From the NCBI GenBank assembly GCA_028718605.1, contig JAQULM010000002.1:129776-193775 (forward strand): a stretch of 64,000 nucleotides of DNA, written 5' to 3'. Position 1 is the stretch's first letter; every line of letters starts with the position of its first letter. Shown here in pieces: positions 17,654-47,542 of the stretch. The notes beneath the pieces were generated by a model. It was not told where the DNA came from and made no database searches. It was given only the letters and a program-made list of their open reading frames with translations. Origin of the DNA: Patescibacteria group bacterium. Lineage in GTDB: Bacteria > Patescibacteriota > Patescibacteriia > UBA10025 > JAHIVO01. Position numbers and translations under genes: made by a program.

Positions 17654-17932
17654 TTACTTTTCAACTTTTGCTAACACGTCTTCTTCCTTCAACACTTTGT
17701 ACTCGACATCGTCAACGGTGACCTCTTCGCCTGAGTACTTCCCGAAAATGACGATGTCCGCTTTCTTCAGGCCGAGCTTCTTGATCTTTTCTCCTTCTCC
17801 GACGGCAATAACCTCGCCTTCCTCTTTCTTTTCTTTTTCAACGGTATCGGGTAACACAATACCGGCCTTGGTAACCTCTTCGTCGGTTACCGGCTTGACG
17901 ATGACTCTGTCTCCCAATGGGACTAGTTTCAT
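17654..17932 (-). CDS. groS: Co-chaperonin GroES (Cpn10)
   Basis: 92 aa; KLVPLGDRVIVKP...GIVLP...IVIFGKYSG. AAGGAG Shine-Dalgarno site 8 nt upstream. Confidence 0.95.
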   Translation of the reverse strand: MKLVPLGDRVIVKPVTDEEVTKAGIVLPDTVEKEKKEEGEVIAVGEGEKIKKLGLKKADIVIFGKYSGEEVTVDDVEYKVLKEEDVLAKVEK

Positions 17933-31629: not shown

Positions 31630-32766
31630 ATGCCCTTTACAGACCACCGACTGGACGGCTGTGTCCACGAACTCGTAGAGTCCCCTTTTGATGGCGGATT
31701 CACCATTGTACGGCACTTACCAGAGGTACCACCTGACCAACAAGAGGCGTATATTCGTGAACTGCTGTCACATTGGCGCTCAAGGGCAACGAATCGAACT
31801 GGGCTGATGCCGCTTGAAGAATGGTGTTTCTACTGCGGAAACGACAGGCAGTATACGTATCCTGATGAGGCAACCCATCAGACAGACTCAGGTCTCATCC
31901 GTGTAGTCACCTTGAAACAAGTTCCGCTTCGAACCGGAATCCCGATTGACCGGACCCCAGCTGACGAGACGTACAGCAGGAAAAACGCGTACGGGGCACT
32001 CGAGCGGATCATCCTGCCGAGCCACGACCGCCGCATTGCTGAACTCGACGCCGGTACCTTCGGCCTCTGCCTGCAGATTGCCGCCAGCCGAATCGCAGAC
32101 CTGGCCCGAGACCCGAACCTGAAATACGTCACGTTCTTCGTCGACGGCAATGGCGTAGTTGAGGATTGCGGCTTCATCCACACTCAGCTTCAGGTCATCG
32201 GCGTAACCGACGTACCGAAAATCAGAATCGCCCCCCAGTTGCAACGCTCTCTTGGATTCTACTATGGCCAGCAGAAAGAGCGCTGCCTTACCTGCGAAAC
32301 GATCGGCACGGAGCTGAAGAGGATTGACCGAATCGTTCTCACAACCGACCATTTCCTGTCGTGGATTCCATACGCGTCCCGGAGCCCCCTCGAAGTATGT
32401 TTCACGCCCCTTGACCATGCCGCGTCATATGAAGAAACGCCGCCGAGCCAGTTCGCTGAACTCGCCGGCCTCATCCTGGATGTGGTCCGGAAGCTCGAAC
32501 TGCTCCTCGGTACGCGGTTCCCATACCAGCTCAAGCTATTCAACGCGCCAGTCTGGTCATTCGGCCGTTTCCCCAATGGAAGCCCGGAAGTGAAGCGTGA
32601 GCACATTCAAAACGCATTCCATTGGCGCCTCGTCCTCGACCCAAACCTTGAGATCCCGGCTGTTATCAGGGAAGTCGTCGACTACGACATCAACGTGCTG
32701 CCGCCTAAGGTTGGTGCGATGCTCCTGCGCCTCCCTGACCACGAAATAAGCAAATGGACCAGCTGA
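31630..32766 (+). CDS. GalT-like (HIT superfamily) hexose-1-phosphate nucleotidyltransferase family protein, divergent
   Basis: CFYCGND resembles the GalT zinc motif CFLCAGN. DHFLSWIPYASRSP and HWRLVLDP align to the GalT motifs EHWLAVVPYWAAWP and HWQLHAHFYP. The canonical HPHGQ is replaced by IHTQLQ. AAGGAGGT Shine-Dalgarno site upstream. Confidence 0.5.
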   Translation: MPFTDHRLDGCVHELVESPFDGGFTIVRHLPEVPPDQQEAYIRELLSHWRSRATNRTGLMPLEEWCFYCGNDRQYTYPDEATHQTDSGLIRVVTLKQVPLRTGIPIDRTPADETYSRKNAYGALERIILPSHDRRIAELDAGTFGLCLQIAASRIADLARDPNLKYVTFFVDGNGVVEDCGFIHTQLQVIGVTDVPKIRIAPQLQRSLGFYYGQQKERCLTCETIGTELKRIDRIVLTTDHFLSWIPYASRSPLEVCFTPLDHAASYEETPPSQFAELAGLILDVVRKLELLLGTRFPYQLKLFNAPVWSFGRFPNGSPEVKREHIQNAFHWRLVLDPNLEIPAVIREVVDYDINVLPPKVGAMLLRLPDHEISKWTS

Positions 32767-42571: not shown

Positions 42572-42773
42572 ACCGCTCCCTGCGCGGCAGCGCAGGAGCG
42601 TCATTTGACATTGGAAAAAATTTCGTGTAAACTGCCATGCATATGGAAACTATTTTTCCACAAGTGAAGAACTCTTACTGGCATCGCACCTGCGATTTTA
42701 TTACTCTTGCCGAAGAGGACTCTTTACGTACGGACCAATAGTGCCATAATCAACAGCCAATAGCCAGAAAAAA

Positions 42774-42807
42774 CCTCTTCGTACAAAACAGCAAGAGGTG
42801 TTTTTTT
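42774..42807 (+). terminator. Intrinsic terminator (cctctt...aagagg, T7) after the VIT-family gene
   Basis: 6-bp stem followed by TGTTTTTTT. Confidence 0.45.
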
Positions 42808-42903
42808 GCGTTGGGAAAAACAAAATCCAGAAAAACGTTTTTGAACGTCCGTTCAGCGGACGCAAGAGCGTACTATGGGAAAAACGTACTTTACCAAGGA
42901 GCA

Positions 42904-43065
42904 ATGATGGAAACCAAAAAAATCCTGTGCACAGCCGACCAACTCAGGGAGATCGCGACCGGCCTCGGCATCGCGCCGGCCGTGGCCGAGGACCTCATCC
43001 AACAGCTGCCCAAACAGGAACCGCCGAACCCATACCCGTTCGCGGGATGCGGCGCATGGTGCTAA
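42904..43065 (+). CDS. Putative RiPP precursor peptide (53 aa; leader-like N-terminus, C-terminal ...PNPYPFAGCGAWC)
   Basis: AAGGAG Shine-Dalgarno site 5 nt before the second ATG. Small ORF immediately upstream of a radical-SAM/SPASM gene. Cys-containing C-terminal tail. Confidence 0.5.
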   Translation: MMETKKILCTADQLREIATGLGIAPAVAEDLIQQLPKQEPPNPYPFAGCGAWC

Positions 43066-43102
43066 CGCATCCAAGAATTGAAATCGTAATAAAGGAGGTA
43101 AC

Positions 43103-43351
43103 ATGAACACACCTAAAGATGAATGGTCGTGTTTACCAGACCACTCACACCTGCATCTCAGCGGTACCCGCACGGCAATGCCCCAAATCGTAAGCCGGGA
43201 CGGCAGGAAACGAGTTTCCCGGTGCCCTGACTCGCCGACAGGAAAACATAAATGGCACACCCCGATGCGGCCGCCGTATGCTATCGACGATCCACCCGAT
43301 TGTTGCGAGTACTGCGGCCTGCCGCGCAATGAACAACTGAAACTGAAGTAA
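43103..43351 (+). CDS. Small Cys-rich protein (82 aa; C10, C41, C67-C68, C71), possible second precursor or partner
   Basis: AAAGGAGGT Shine-Dalgarno site. Stop overlaps the Shine-Dalgarno site of the radical-SAM gene. Ends ...DCCEYCGLPRNEQLKLK. Confidence 0.5.
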   Translation: MNTPKDEWSCLPDHSHLHLSGTRTAMPQIVSRDGRKRVSRCPDSPTGKHKWHTPMRPPYAIDDPPDCCEYCGLPRNEQLKLK

Positions 43352-43362
43352 AGGAGTATAAT

Positions 43363-44421
43363 ATGAACGAACTGAACAAACTCAGCCGACGCTACGACGA
43401 ACAAGCGCCGCGCGCAGGGCTGAAGTACGGCATTATCGAAGTGACGACGCGGTGCCAGTGCGCATGCCCGGGGTGCTATATGGTCCGGCGGGACAGCCTG
43501 AATAAAGGCGCCGTACCGCTCGCCCGCGCTGTCCGCGTGCTCGACATGTGCCGCGACTATACCGGCTGCGAACTCGAAACGATGGACCTCTTGGGCGGCG
43601 ATCCGCTGCTGTGGCCGCACTTGAAGGCGTACTGTACCATCCTGCTCAAACGCGGGATCCTTCCGTGGGTGTTCACCAACATGATCGCCATCACCCCTGA
43701 AATGGCACGGTGGCTGTTCGAACGGCAGGTCCATATTACCGGCAAACTGAACATCAATCCTGACAACGCGGAGGCGATGCCGCTGCAAGCCGAGATGATC
43801 GGGCAGCGTCTCGGCATCGCAAAAAAAATGCTGGCGGCGATCAGCATTTTCACTGATGCAGGCTACCGCCAACCGCTCTTCCGGCTGCAGAACCTGATCC
43901 GGCGGAGCAACATCAGCCTGGTTCCTGACTACTACCGCTGGTGCCTGCAACACGGCGTTGGTACCGATCTGGAGCTTATGGCGTCAGGCGAGCCGATCGA
44001 CCAGGAATATTTCCGCATCGCGCCAAACCCGGAAGAGCTGGCCGCAATGATACAGAACGTCCAGGCGGTGCGCGCGGAATGTGGCTTGCCGGAAGCCGAC
44101 GTACTCATGCCGCACGTGTTCGGCGCCTGCCCGTTCTTCGACAAAGGATTGTACTTCGCCGTCGACGGGTCGATCCGCGCGTGTTCAAATTCCAGCGTTA
44201 CACTGGCAAACCTGGACGATCCTGACCCGATCCGCAAGGCGTATGAATCGCCGCTTATCTGCAACAGGCTCAAACTGTCGCAAGCGGTTGTCGGCGAACC
44301 GTGCCGCTCCTGCGACCGCTGGGAACGCTGCCGAGGCGGCTGCCGGGCGACCGCAGAAGGCACCGGAGACCCTTTCGGCGGGTACATGCTGTGCCCCGTC
44401 CCGCACCTTCTGGCCGGATAG
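43363..44421 (+). CDS. Radical-SAM/SPASM-domain peptide-modifying enzyme (maturase-like)
   Basis: CxxxCxxC (TTRCQCACPGCYM) near the N-terminus. C-terminal Cys-rich SPASM-like region (CPFFDKG...CSNS...CNR...CRSCDRWERCRGGCRA). AAGGAG Shine-Dalgarno site 6 nt upstream. Confidence 0.85.
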   Translation: MNELNKLSRRYDEQAPRAGLKYGIIEVTTRCQCACPGCYMVRRDSLNKGAVPLARAVRVLDMCRDYTGCELETMDLLGGDPLLWPHLKAYCTILLKRGILPWVFTNMIAITPEMARWLFERQVHITGKLNINPDNAEAMPLQAEMIGQRLGIAKKMLAAISIFTDAGYRQPLFRLQNLIRRSNISLVPDYYRWCLQHGVGTDLELMASGEPIDQEYFRIAPNPEELAAMIQNVQAVRAECGLPEADVLMPHVFGACPFFDKGLYFAVDGSIRACSNSSVTLANLDDPDPIRKAYESPLICNRLKLSQAVVGEPCRSCDRWERCRGGCRATAEGTGDPFGGYMLCPVPHLLAG

Positions 44422-44585
44422 CAAAACGGGGGCTGAAGCAAATCTAATTTGTTTCAGCCCTCCCTTTAAAACACTACCGCATTTAAAAATATTTACCGTA
44501 TCTAACAACACTATGCAGAAAAAAATAATTGAAATCGCCCGGGCAACCATTCGACGATTGCAGCTCACGTACCCGCGGTTCATTA

Positions 44586-44981
44586 ATGTCATCCTCGATG
44601 ACTGGCGCGGGTACCGGCTTCATTTACGATACCGATGACGTACGGAATTGTCGGAATCGCTGCGAACAGTGCCAGCTGTACCAATTACTAAATAACGAGC
44701 AAGGCGGTACATTCACCGCCCGGTTGAAAAAAGCTTCCGAAGCTGATAAACGCCTCTTCGGGCCCCAGAACTTCCTCAACTGCAAGACGATCGCACAGTA
44801 CCAGCGCTGCTACAGCAGCTTCATCTGCACGCAAATCAAAACGAAAAAGGAGCTCCAGCGCGAACTCACACTGCTCCGGGGCATGAAAATAGTTTTTACT
44901 CGCGGTAACAATAACCGCGCCCTCGAACGCCAATTTAAACGCGCAGTACTCGCCTCGTTCTCGGGCGGGTTTAAAAATTAA
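44586..44981 (+). CDS. Cys-rich hypothetical protein; possibly a frameshifted fusion with the 41-aa ORF 44513..44638 in another frame
   Basis: Frame-0 ORF with CRNRCEQCQ and CYSSFIC motifs. An overlapping frame-2 ORF (MQKKIIEIARATIRRLQLTYPRFINVILDDWRGYR...) ends inside it. Confidence 0.3.
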   Translation: MSSSMTGAGTGFIYDTDDVRNCRNRCEQCQLYQLLNNEQGGTFTARLKKASEADKRLFGPQNFLNCKTIAQYQRCYSSFICTQIKTKKELQRELTLLRGMKIVFTRGNNNRALERQFKRAVLASFSGGFKN

Positions 44982-45272: not shown

Positions 45273-46820
45273 TCATAACTCCTTTTCCATATACGTCCTT
45301 TTCAGCCGGTACCCGAGCTTCCGGTAGTACTCACGCACACCAATGCCGGCGATAACGGCAATTTTTTGATATCCTGCATTCCGCCCGATGCGTTCTGCTT
45401 CTGCCATCAAACGCTTCCCCAAACCGACGTGCTGCACCGCTTTTTTCTTTGAGCCGACTGAAACCAGCTCGCCATACGTGTGCAGCTCGCGAACAAGCGC
45501 TGTTCCTGCATCGAACGGGCCTTCTCCGAAACCGCGTATCGCAGGAAGTCGCAGCCGGACAAATGCATAGAGCCTTTTTCTGTCAGGGCTCTCAAAACTG
45601 ATTAAGTGCTCAGTCCCTGCGGCTGCTGAATATTTACGGTGTACCAATCGAATGTCTTTGAGCTGGAATTTGGCTCCCCGCACTTCACGGCAACGAATGC
45701 ACATGCACGTGACTCCCTGCTCGCGGAGAAGCTGGCGTAAGTTCGTGACCCGATTGCCGGCAACAATATCATGGCCCGGAATATCGCGGATCAGGCGGTT
45801 GATGCGGACGTACGGAGGCACCAGTGCCTTGATTCGAATGAGCAGCTTTTCTAACACCGCATTCGAGTATGGTTTGTACTTCCCCTGTTGATACCAACGG
45901 TACAGAAGAGAATTTTTTATTACTACGCATGGGTAGATTTTCAGCATGTCCGGCTGGAAGCGCGGATCGGAAAAAAGTTTTTTAAAAACAGCCAGGTCTT
46001 TCGCCGGCGTCGAGCCAGGAAGCCCCGGCATGATATGGTAGGTAATTTTAAATCCGAACTCCCGCAACAGCGCGGTTGCACGTGCTATGTTCTCGAGCGT
46101 GTCATCCCGATGAATATAATCGAGAATATCCTGGTGCAGCGTCTGCACACCGATCTGGACATGGGTACACCCCAATAATCGCATGTGCCGCAATTCATCA
46201 GGCGTAACATGGTCAGGCCGCGTTTCCAGTGACAATCCAATAATGCGATGGGGAGCGCGTTCGTTTTTTTTCTGCGCCAATGCCAACGTTGCCGAGGTTG
46301 AACCATTGGCGCCGTCAAAACAACGCTTCACAAACCACTCGCGGTACCGTTTCGGGTAATGCGACCACGTGCCCCCGAGGACGATGAGCTCAATTTTTCC
46401 GGCACTATGGCCATTCCCCTCGAGGACGCGGATGCGCGTGCTAACCTGCCGGTACGGGTCGAATTTGAGGAGGTGCGCCCGCTGGGCAGCTGGCTCGGAC
46501 TTCAGGTAACTCTTTGGCATGCCGGCAGGCGCTGGGCAGTATACACACCTCCCGGGACACGGATATGGCTTGGTGAGCACCGTTACCGGCGCAACCCCGG
46601 ACTGCGTCCGAATGCTTCGCTTGCGCAGGAGCTCGACGAACCGTTGGTCCTCCTTTCCTTTGTAAACCTGCCGATAGTTCTGCAACAGCTCTGAATTGGG
46701 TATAATGGTAGTATGGTACCGATCAGCGAGCGCACCCTTGGCGCGGCGTAGCGCAGGCCGATTCTGCACCCGCAAACGGACGAGGTCGGTGATATAGTCT
46801 TTTTGAATGGATTTCTTCAT
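45273..46820 (-). CDS. Elp3-family radical-SAM/GNAT protein (tRNA wobble-uridine modification-type)
   Basis: Radical-SAM CPGRCVYCP. C-terminal GNAT-like segment (HVGLGKRLMAEAERIGRNAGYQKIAVIAGIGVREYYRKLGY). Central Elp3 signature region. Confidence 0.75.
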   Translation of the reverse strand: MKKSIQKDYITDLVRLRVQNRPALRRAKGALADRYHTTIIPNSELLQNYRQVYKGKEDQRFVELLRKRSIRTQSGVAPVTVLTKPYPCPGRCVYCPAPAGMPKSYLKSEPAAQRAHLLKFDPYRQVSTRIRVLEGNGHSAGKIELIVLGGTWSHYPKRYREWFVKRCFDGANGSTSATLALAQKKNERAPHRIIGLSLETRPDHVTPDELRHMRLLGCTHVQIGVQTLHQDILDYIHRDDTLENIARATALLREFGFKITYHIMPGLPGSTPAKDLAVFKKLFSDPRFQPDMLKIYPCVVIKNSLLYRWYQQGKYKPYSNAVLEKLLIRIKALVPPYVRINRLIRDIPGHDIVAGNRVTNLRQLLREQGVTCMCIRCREVRGAKFQLKDIRLVHRKYSAAAGTEHLISFESPDRKRLYAFVRLRLPAIRGFGEGPFDAGTALVRELHTYGELVSVGSKKKAVQHVGLGKRLMAEAERIGRNAGYQKIAVIAGIGVREYYRKLGYRLKRTYMEKEL

Positions 46821-46822
46821 AT

Positions 46823-47542
46823 ATGAAAAACGAGGTTGCACAGCACATTGTAGAGGAAAATCGCAGAATCTACAATGTGATCGCGGAACAATTTTCGTCG
46901 ACACGGTCGTCCCCGTGGCCGGAGTTCTCGTTGTTTGAAGCCTATGTACGCAGTACTGATGCGCTGCTCGACATTGGCTGCGGCAACGGCCGTATTGCGC
47001 AGTATTTCAAACCAAAAGGCGTACGGTACACTGGTTTGGACAATAGCAGTGCGCTCGTTGAACGCGCGCGGACAGCGAACCTGCACGGTACGTTTGTTGT
47101 TGGCGAAGCAACGCGGCTGCCGTTCAAGTCAGAATCATTTGACGTCATCCTGTGCGTTGCGACGCTCCACCACATCCCCTCAAACGAATTACGGCAACAG
47201 GCTGTGAACGAAGCATTCCGCACGGCAAAGCACGGCGCGTACTTCCTCCTGACCGAATGGAACCTCTGGAGCATGCGGTGGTGGCAAACCCTGCTGGCGT
47301 TCTCATGGAAAAAGGCTTGCCGCAGAAGCTCCCTCGATTGGGGTGATGTCCGGAAACCCTGGAAAAATTCGCACGGCATTGTCATGGGCGAACGGTATCT
47401 CCATTTGTTCACGCTCCGAGGGCTCACCTGCCTGCTCCGGAATGCAGGCTTTCAAGTAATCGAGCACCGTTTTACAAGCCGCACAGGCACGGCAACCCGC
47501 CTCACTGCACGAAATATCTTCACGGTTGCCCAAAAGCCTTGA
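46823..47542 (+). CDS. Class I SAM-dependent methyltransferase
   Basis: Motif I LDIGCGNGRIAQYF; acidic loop LDNS. Start ATG is 2 nt from the divergent Elp3 start codon. Confidence 0.75.
   Translation: MKNEVAQHIVEENRRIYNVIAEQFSSTRSSPWPEFSLFEAYVRSTDALLDIGCGNGRIAQYFKPKGVRYTGLDNSSALVERARTANLHGTFVVGEATRLPFKSESFDVILCVATLHHIPSNELRQQAVNEAFRTAKHGAYFLLTEWNLWSMRWWQTLLAFSWKKACRRSSLDWGDVRKPWKNSHGIVMGERYLHLFTLRGLTCLLRNAGFQVIEHRFTSRTGTATRLTARNIFTVAQKP

Follow-up and report, generated by a model that had tools for sequence, protein, structure and literature searches.

Several radical S-adenosylmethionine (radical-SAM) enzymes with a SPASM domain are known as maturases of proteins or peptides. anSME is a housekeeping-type maturase of a full-length protein encoded nearby and is not an enzyme of ribosomally synthesized and post-translationally modified peptide (RiPP) pathways. 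QhpD is a SPASM maturase that forms thioethers between Cys and Asp/Glu residues in QhpC, the ~100-amino-acid (aa) gamma subunit of quinohemoprotein amine dehydrogenase. The RiPP maturases SuiB (streptide), CteB (ranthipeptide/SCIFF), SkfB, ChlB and AlbA have their own N-terminal RiPP recognition element (RRE) and co-varying, conserved precursor families, and RiPP operons carry small Cys- and Trp-containing open reading frames (ORFs) directly upstream of the maturase gene. Here we describe a locus that looks similar at first sight. It lies in a 64,000-nucleotide stretch of contig JAQULM010000002.1 (positions 129,776 to 193,775, forward strand; assembly GCA_028718605.1) from a Patescibacteria group bacterium, which we call the window. 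A gene for a 352-aa radical-SAM/SPASM enzyme (the rSAM gene, 43363-44421 on the plus strand, delimited by its ORF, profiles, orthologues and a fold model) stands directly behind two small ORFs, pepA and pepB. The original prediction, made from the letters alone, took the two ORFs for RiPP precursors feeding the enzyme. Comparison with related loci leads us to lean instead, with rather more belief than doubt, towards a conserved protein-maturation module of the Candidate Phyla Radiation (CPR), in which the slot of a TrpR-like gene is here taken by orphan ORFs and the partner gene is frameshifted.

Hidden Markov model (HMM) searches of Pfam and NCBIfam and an alignment of Cys residues confirm the enzyme as a radical-SAM/SPASM protein. 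It scores 24.9 bits (E = 2.6e-5) against Pfam PF04055, under the gathering score of 29.5, and 26.5 bits against the SPASM HMM TIGR04085, just below the cut-off of 27. No curated NCBIfam family exceeds 30 bits. The radical-SAM motif C31-x3-C35-x2-C38 is invariant in an alignment of 21 orthologues; its presence had been predicted correctly and its position, about 25 residues in, had not, as the first Cys is residue 31. Because the motif begins there, no N-terminal domain is possible on the enzyme. As predicted, no RRE or PqqD domain is fused to it, and the Pfam and NCBIfam profiles for these domains find no match in pepA or pepB either. The C-terminal SPASM-type array that had been proposed is complete, with seven Cys (C256-x12-G269-x4-C274, C314-x2-C317-x5-C323-x3-C327 and C344) that are invariant or nearly so in the 21 orthologues.

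The enzyme belongs to a large family. A protein search returns more than 180 homologues at 56-78% identity from Buchananbacteria, Doudnabacteria, Gribaldobacteria, Gracilibacteria, Magasanikbacteria, Peribacteria and unclassified Patescibacteria. Mean column identity in the 21-sequence alignment is 59%, with ~100 invariant columns, and this conservation is far above the norm for RiPP maturases. These sequence comparisons identify the enzyme as the local orthologue of a highly conserved, uncharacterised, CPR-wide radical-SAM/SPASM family. At columns conserved in at least 90% of sequences it has just two departures, both conservative (L to M and I to V), the joint lowest count of the 21; the ancestral function has therefore apparently been kept, with neither decay nor a change of substrate in evidence. 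The genome itself had been suspected to be CPR-like, and protein matches together with an identical contig in the Patescibacteria metagenome-assembled genome (MAG) GCA_028711455.1 place it there.

An AlphaFold2 (AF2) model of the enzyme (pLDDT 79.6, pTM 0.83) has a partial TIM-barrel fold and gives 58 matches in the PDB at E ≤ 0.001, of which the listed ones are nearly all radical-SAM enzymes. The nearest folds are those of anSMEcpe, ChlB, SuiB, CteB and SkfB, at a TM of ~0.6 and 13-16% identity. The predicted fold is thus closest to peptide- and protein-modifying SPASM/twitch enzymes. The best structural match of the model is anSMEcpe (PDB 4k39; Foldseek E 8e-10, TM 0.63). anSME and the enzyme are alike in carrying a SPASM domain, in their length of ~350-370 aa, in having two auxiliary clusters and in lacking an RRE. 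The likeness is nevertheless at the level of fold only, with 13-15% identity, and the genetic settings differ: neither a sulfatase nor a C/S-x-P-x-R target occurs in the window or in related loci, and what accompanies the enzyme here is an unrelated, conserved Cys-rich protein (~165 aa). The 25 listed NCBIfam matches of the enzyme include no anSME family.

Comparison with the other described systems gives a similar picture. SuiB, CteB, SkfB, ChlB and AlbA come next after anSME in the fold search and share the predicted fold class of the enzyme, and the small Cys- and Trp-containing ORFs directly upstream in the window are as in RiPP operons; unlike those systems, the enzyme has no RRE and the peptides next to it show no conservation. 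At the sequence level the best NCBIfam matches are PqqE and MftC, with every match inside the SPASM cluster region, and both fall short of their cut-offs (28.6 against 381 bits for PqqE, TIGR02109; 28.3 against 265 bits for MftC, TIGR03962). PqqE (6c8v, E = 2e-4) is also the sole PDB sequence match. Their systems differ further in that no PqqD-like protein, PqqA/MftA-like peptide or other pathway gene is present here. The pair of QhpD and QhpC would be close in concept, with a SPASM enzyme and, in place of a peptide made of leader and core, a small Cys-rich protein substrate that has conserved Cys, Asp/Glu and Trp residues. However, no sequence relationship to the QhpD system was detected, the partner is unrelated to QhpC and appears cytoplasmic, and the module comes without dehydrogenase subunits, peptidase or transporter. 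We found no related solved structure or curated family for the enzyme, which is a new family among the SPASM radical-SAM maturases, with an unusual set of conserved partners.

These partners emerge from a comparison set of 9 genome loci, 72 metagenome loci and several individual contigs, within which 82 related loci were searched (loci carry L numbers). Counts come from profile searches over six-frame ORFs, and denominators are the loci with enough flanking sequence. A gene for the Cys-rich protein lies downstream of the rSAM gene in 53 of 56 loci, on the same strand and after a gap of 42-97 nt. Upstream, on the same strand and usually at a distance of 95-217 nt, a YerC/TrpR-like gene is found in 46 of 50; it matches Pfam Trp_repressor (PF01371) and TIGR02531 (YerC/YecD). 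pepA or pepB occurs at none of the loci outside the window's own genome. Since the wider surroundings differ among genomes and are of housekeeping character (ribosomal-protein operons, SecA, competence genes), the conserved unit consists of the TrpR-like, rSAM/SPASM and Cys-rich genes. No curated family covers this module, and full-text searching found no literature describing it. Examples of the three-gene unit are L002:4542-6559 and L086:6589-8562 (range L002-L081), and it is present in many Patescibacteria lineages. TrpR-like and rSAM genes are also carried, at 62-65% enzyme identity, by two MAGs labelled 'uncultured Gammaproteobacteria' (L004, CAYJKP010000001.1, and L008, CAYGGS010000008.1), the second of which holds the partner gene as well; these labels may be wrong.

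The upstream slot departs from this arrangement in the window. A tblastn search of the 64 kb finds no TrpR-like gene (best E 2.3), and the gene is also missing from the closest relatives, L001 and L083. The upstream neighbours of the enzyme are all different in these three genomes, and on such sequence comparisons the slot seems prone to gene turnover. In graspetide loci, the position before the SPASM enzyme is filled by small proteins that are unrelated (LPL family; PMC8939145). Replacement of the TrpR-like gene by pepA and pepB could be analogous to this; the graspetide loci differ in that there is no ATP-grasp ligase here and that the usual upstream protein is a YerC/TrpR-type helix-turn-helix (HTH) protein, not LPL. 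Further lineages have ORFs of their own in the slot, unrelated to these, among them one of 33 aa behind aaaggaggtga upstream of the rSAM gene of L083, which lacks the TrpR-like gene (L083:4860-4975), and ORFs of 119 aa (L007:4655-5014) and 195 aa (L074:648-1235) between the TrpR-like and rSAM genes. No conserved small ORF is present in the short gaps before orthologous enzymes. A candidate hidden peptide between the TrpR-like and rSAM genes, "PSQKEGVLF", was rejected: it arises when the conserved terminator hairpin and the last part of the TrpR-like gene are read out of frame.

The Cys-rich partner gene is present downstream of the rSAM gene in the window and is split by a frameshift. A split tblastn match and HMM matches in two frames resolve it into an N-terminal part of 41 aa (44513-44638, plus strand), which ends ...DDWRGYR, and a C-terminal part of 127-131 aa in the +1 frame (44586-44981, plus strand), in which homology runs from 44619 (FIYDTDDVRNCRNRCEQC...). 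One extra nucleotide at ~44618 (tac cgg c ttc) cuts the N-terminal part short. Both the NCBI assembly and a Logan assembly made independently from SRR22315508 show this same frameshift, which may reflect a real pseudogene or a read-level error. The protein has no family in Pfam, NCBIfam, PADLOC or PHROGs and no relative in the PDB; its AF2 model, built from four sequences, has a pLDDT of 69 and finds generic helical folds only. An alignment of 51 sequences (L001:6097-6552 and 50 further loci) defines its conserved residues. These are D29, W31 and G33 of a D-x-W-x-G motif (DDWRG); a CxxxCxxC triad, in 45 of the 51, with the same spacing as the radical-SAM motif; and a strongly conserved FGPQNFLNCKT...QY...C segment in which C90 is kept in 49 sequences, K91 in all and C99 in 46. 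The triad has been lost in about six lineages (L020, L037, L041, L073, L060 and L022) that keep the remainder of the protein.

The triad and the two further conserved Cys would fit the binding of a metal or an Fe-S cluster. They bear on an alternative in which the substrate is a small molecule or cofactor, like those of the SPASM/twitch enzymes BtrN and NirJ/AhbD; the partner would serve as an Fe-S/redox helper or carrier and the TrpR-like protein as a ligand-sensing regulator, and pepA and pepB would have no part in catalysis. In its favour, repressors of the TrpR family typically respond to small molecules, the TrpR-like and rSAM genes are separated by a terminator- or attenuator-like structure, and the weak NCBIfam matches of the enzyme include NirJ, AhbC and a tungsten-cofactor maturase. 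The best structural matches of the model are, on the other hand, all peptide or protein modifiers, with small-molecule enzymes ranking lower. CPR genomes, moreover, encode little cofactor biosynthesis, and the Cys triad of the partner is evidently dispensable in ~6 lineages. We regard a small-molecule substrate as unlikely, while giving it real weight.

The two small ORFs of the window are tightly packed in front of the rSAM gene on the same strand, and all three genes have strong Shine-Dalgarno (SD) sites, as the window sequence and ORF listing bear out. pepA spans 42907-43065 (52 aa), or starts at the ATG at 42904 (53 aa); the second ATG, at 42907, has the better SD spacing. Its C-terminus reads ...PYPFAGCGAWC. 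pepB spans 43103-43351 and encodes 82 aa with five Cys. The SD sites are AAGGAG at 42896-42901 for pepA, AAGGAGGT at 43092-43099 for pepB, and AAGGAG at 43351-43356 for the rSAM gene, the last of which overlaps the TAA stop of pepB just as had been described. Since they are co-oriented, tightly packed and each led by an SD site, pepA and pepB are probably co-transcribed and translated with the enzyme, and the SD sites argue for translation of both.

That such sites are unusual in this genome and clustered at this locus is borne out by two counts. In a survey of ~45 probable genes of the window, SD sites of at least 6 nt precede pepA, pepB, the rSAM gene and a GalT-like gene (31630) only. The pattern AAGGAG-N3-8-ATG occurs 10 times in the window against 2.2 expected from shuffles, and five of the sites open into substantial ORFs, those of GroES, the GalT-like gene, pepA, pepB and the rSAM gene. 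GroES (17654-17932, minus strand) and the GalT-like gene (31630-32766, plus strand; galactose-1-phosphate uridylyltransferase family) are the only places elsewhere in the window with a strong AAGGAG SD site, and most genes of the genome have no recognisable SD. The GalT-like gene and pepB have the 11-mer AAGGAGGTAAC in common. Orthologous rSAM genes elsewhere in the CPR almost always have an SD site of the GGAGG/AGGAG type.

Codon usage separates the two small ORFs. A log-likelihood ratio (LLR) trained on 41 long ORFs of the window gives +0.34 per codon for pepA, -0.07 for pepB and +0.24 for the rSAM gene, with a GC content at third codon positions (GC3) of 0.77, 0.59 and 0.76, respectively. 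Real genes cut into 52-codon chunks have a mean LLR of 0.29; spurious ORFs of 45-100 aa have a mean of -0.16 and a 95th percentile of 0.18. Because its LLR is in the range of real genes and its GC3 is like that of the rSAM gene, pepA looks like a gene and probably encodes a real small protein. The coding status of pepB is doubtful from its sequence: its LLR is inside the range of spurious ORFs, yet above those of its two alternative frames.

Relatives of the two peptides were sought widely. Local tblastn against 9 and then 82 related loci found none, and both ORFs are absent from L001 and L083, whose enzymes are 77-78% identical to that of the window. A word-indexed search of 5.8 billion proteins, and scans of viral contigs, returned self-matches only. 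So did HMMER, run with the two peptides concatenated against 1.84 billion representatives, apart from artefacts that were low-complexity, proline-rich and spanned the artificial junction between the two peptides. Neither peptide belongs to a family in Pfam, NCBIfam, PADLOC or PHROGs. A candidate origin of pepA as a remnant of the TrpR-like HTH protein was rejected (1.4 bits against the TrpR-like profile), as was kinship of either peptide with the downstream Cys-rich family, to which neither is similar. By these sequence searches pepA and pepB are genome-specific orphans.

Orphan status in all databases searched would also be expected if pepA, pepB or both were non-functional, either chance ORFs or remnants of a rearranged region with fortuitous or relic SD sites. 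The codon score of pepB within the spurious-ORF distribution fits this idea, and so does the rearrangement of the region upstream of the enzyme within the clade (window, L001 and L083). Against it count three consecutive strong SD sites at the right spacing where 64 kb contain only five SD-led real ORFs, a codon score for pepA above the 95th percentile of spurious ORFs, and the independent calling of both ORFs in public annotations. We consider it improbable.

These results bear on the RiPP reading. No precursor is co-conserved with the maturase in the 82 related loci, L001 and L083 included; the conserved neighbours of the enzyme family are the TrpR-like and Cys-rich proteins and not small precursor ORFs. 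No RRE or PqqD element, fused or stand-alone, is detected by Pfam or NCBIfam, and no leader peptidase or exporter is among the neighbouring genes. The original prediction had itself named small ORFs unconserved in relatives as the outcome that would speak against it, and this outcome was found across the related loci, the databases and the viral contigs. The positive support for the RiPP reading consists of adjacency and the SD sites, and a RiPP pathway is possible but is not the best reading.

In a narrower form, the pathway would be specific to this lineage: once the TrpR-like gene had been lost and the partner disrupted, the enzyme, or a promiscuous activity of it, would modify pepA, for example by a thioether or C-C crosslink that could form in the C-terminal GCGAWC, with pepB serving as a further substrate or in recognition. 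Three packed, co-oriented genes with strong SD sites in a genome that rarely uses them fit this proposal, as do the real-gene codon usage of pepA and its GC3, the same as that of the enzyme, its layout of leader and Cys/Trp core, the predicted fold class that the enzyme shares with RiPP maturases, and the frameshift of the canonical partner. It has to be set against the absence of any homologue of pepA or pepB in the searches, even in the two closest relatives, and of an RRE, protease or exporter. The enzyme shows no altered constraint and is far under the threshold of every curated RiPP-maturase family, and the coding signal of pepB is poor. We find this version distinctly improbable.

Our favoured reading remains the conserved CPR module. 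Most likely, the enzyme would modify a conserved protein substrate post-translationally, using SAM and three Fe-S clusters; we infer this from the class of its fold and the missing RRE, together with strictly kept synteny in a housekeeping setting. The best candidate for the substrate would be the adjacent Cys-rich protein with its D-x-W-x-G, CxxxCxxC and FGPQNFLNCKT motifs. The enzyme would then work in the manner of anSME on sulfatases or QhpD on QhpC and not as a maturase of a diffusible RiPP. pepA and pepB appear to have taken the place where other lineages usually have the TrpR-like gene, and they may serve there in an auxiliary or regulatory capacity or be evolutionarily young genes.

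Several observations weigh against this reading. The proposed role of the partner as substrate is drawn from synteny, and hairpins separate the rSAM gene from the partner gene in the window and in the loci inspected, so the two are perhaps not strictly co-expressed. In the window this is a strong 13-bp hairpin (44430-44460, plus strand; fold -24.4 kcal/mol), and comparable hairpins are visible in short upstream sequences of L001, L006 and L009. About 6 of 51 lineages have dispensed with the partner's CxxxCxxC triad. In 3 of 56 loci the partner gene does not lie next to the rSAM gene, and in the window it is frameshifted beside an intact enzyme; this suggests that the enzyme can be of use even where no intact partner lies beside it. 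The four-sequence model of the partner is of low confidence and has no informative fold match. Lastly, strong SD sites make pepA and pepB unlikely to be pure noise and leave room for a role as substrates.

The leader of the rSAM gene gives a further point of comparison. A motif, GTTCTTT[N]AA, reaches at least 8 bits in 33 of 56 orthologous rSAM leaders, nearly always 19-36 nt before the start. Its best match near the locus, GTACTTTACC (42886-42895, plus strand; 8.0 bits by position weight matrix, rank 102 of 127,982 window positions), is 21 nt before the ATG of pepA, and not before pepB or the enzyme. The chance of such a placement is ~1-4%. Because the best leader-motif match precedes it, pepA may sit behind the ancestral leader of the enzyme gene, as this arrangement suggests. 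A more far-reaching scenario is that the lineage was rewired: the TrpR-like gene was lost, the partner was broken, and young pepA, with its GCGAWC core, was captured as a new substrate behind the ancestral leader. We give this little credence; if true, a housekeeping maturase of a CPR bacterium would here have given rise to a RiPP.

Between the TrpR-like and rSAM genes elsewhere, 34 of 44 gaps hold a GC-rich hairpin followed by a T-run (CCCCTTCTC-n4-GAGAAGGGG). The 3' end of the TrpR-like ORF (last ~45 nt) can pair with the 5' arm of the hairpin better than shuffles do (median z -2.4), and an attenuator between the two genes is possible from these sequence patterns. TrpR-like proteins end in a conserved tail, HH-x-N-SS...KGL (L002, L013, L024, L039, L050 and others), which is encoded by this pairing stretch. 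Some rSAM leaders have two adjacent small hairpins (TCCGC-n-GCGGA and TCCC-n-GGGA) upstream of a GTTCTTTACA-like motif and the SD site (L045:3940-4021, L053:3879-3973, L060:3908-3988, L069:3934-4006 and L009:4925-5003). This stretch may be a structured 5' leader; there is one compensatory pair only in the five sequences.

Upstream of pepA, the window contains a palindrome, cgtccg-ttcag-cggacg (42846-42862, plus strand; fold -10.4 kcal/mol), which had been put forward as a possible operator. The 6-5-6 palindrome exists, one base away from the coordinates first given, and is unremarkable by itself because the window holds 135 perfect 6-bp hairpins of this kind (81-106 in shuffles). A candidate identity with the conserved leader hairpin of distant loci was not supported, as a covariance model of the five leaders named above missed the 42.8-42.9 kb region. 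A weak hairpin (cctctt...aagagg) with a run of seven T lies downstream of the VIT1-like gene (42774-42807, plus strand; fold -9.4 kcal/mol) and resembles the GC-rich terminator hairpin found after the TrpR-like gene elsewhere. A sigma-70 promoter scan found nothing convincing directly upstream of pepA. A promoter-like TTGACA-17-TAAACT (10 of 12 matches) and, after it, a 34-aa ORF, MHMETIFPQVKNSYWHRTCDFITLAEEDSLRTDQ, with a poor codon score lie at 42605-42742, flanked by the VIT1-like gene and the hairpin that precedes pepA.

The neighbouring genes encode VIT1-like, SHMT, FolD and NUDIX proteins, an Elp3-like radical-SAM protein, a methyltransferase and phosphoglucomutase. Some 300 nt past the end of the partner gene lies a further radical-SAM gene, unrelated to the first (45273-46904, minus strand; Radical_SAM and Radical_SAM_C Pfam domains in the NCBI gene call). 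The only Rfam matches in the window are three tRNAs.

CPR/Patescibacteria genomes are very small. The enzyme is kept in them at ~60-78% identity with steady neighbours, and it is therefore likely to be important to the CPR. The locus also carries a caution for genome mining: a SPASM enzyme behind small Cys-containing ORFs mimics a RiPP cluster, but the comparison of genomes here favours a module of housekeeping type with orphan ORFs confined to the lineage. Knowing the substrate would bring to light a new reaction in protein or cofactor maturation, and would annotate hundreds of genes now listed as "hypothetical" and "radical SAM".

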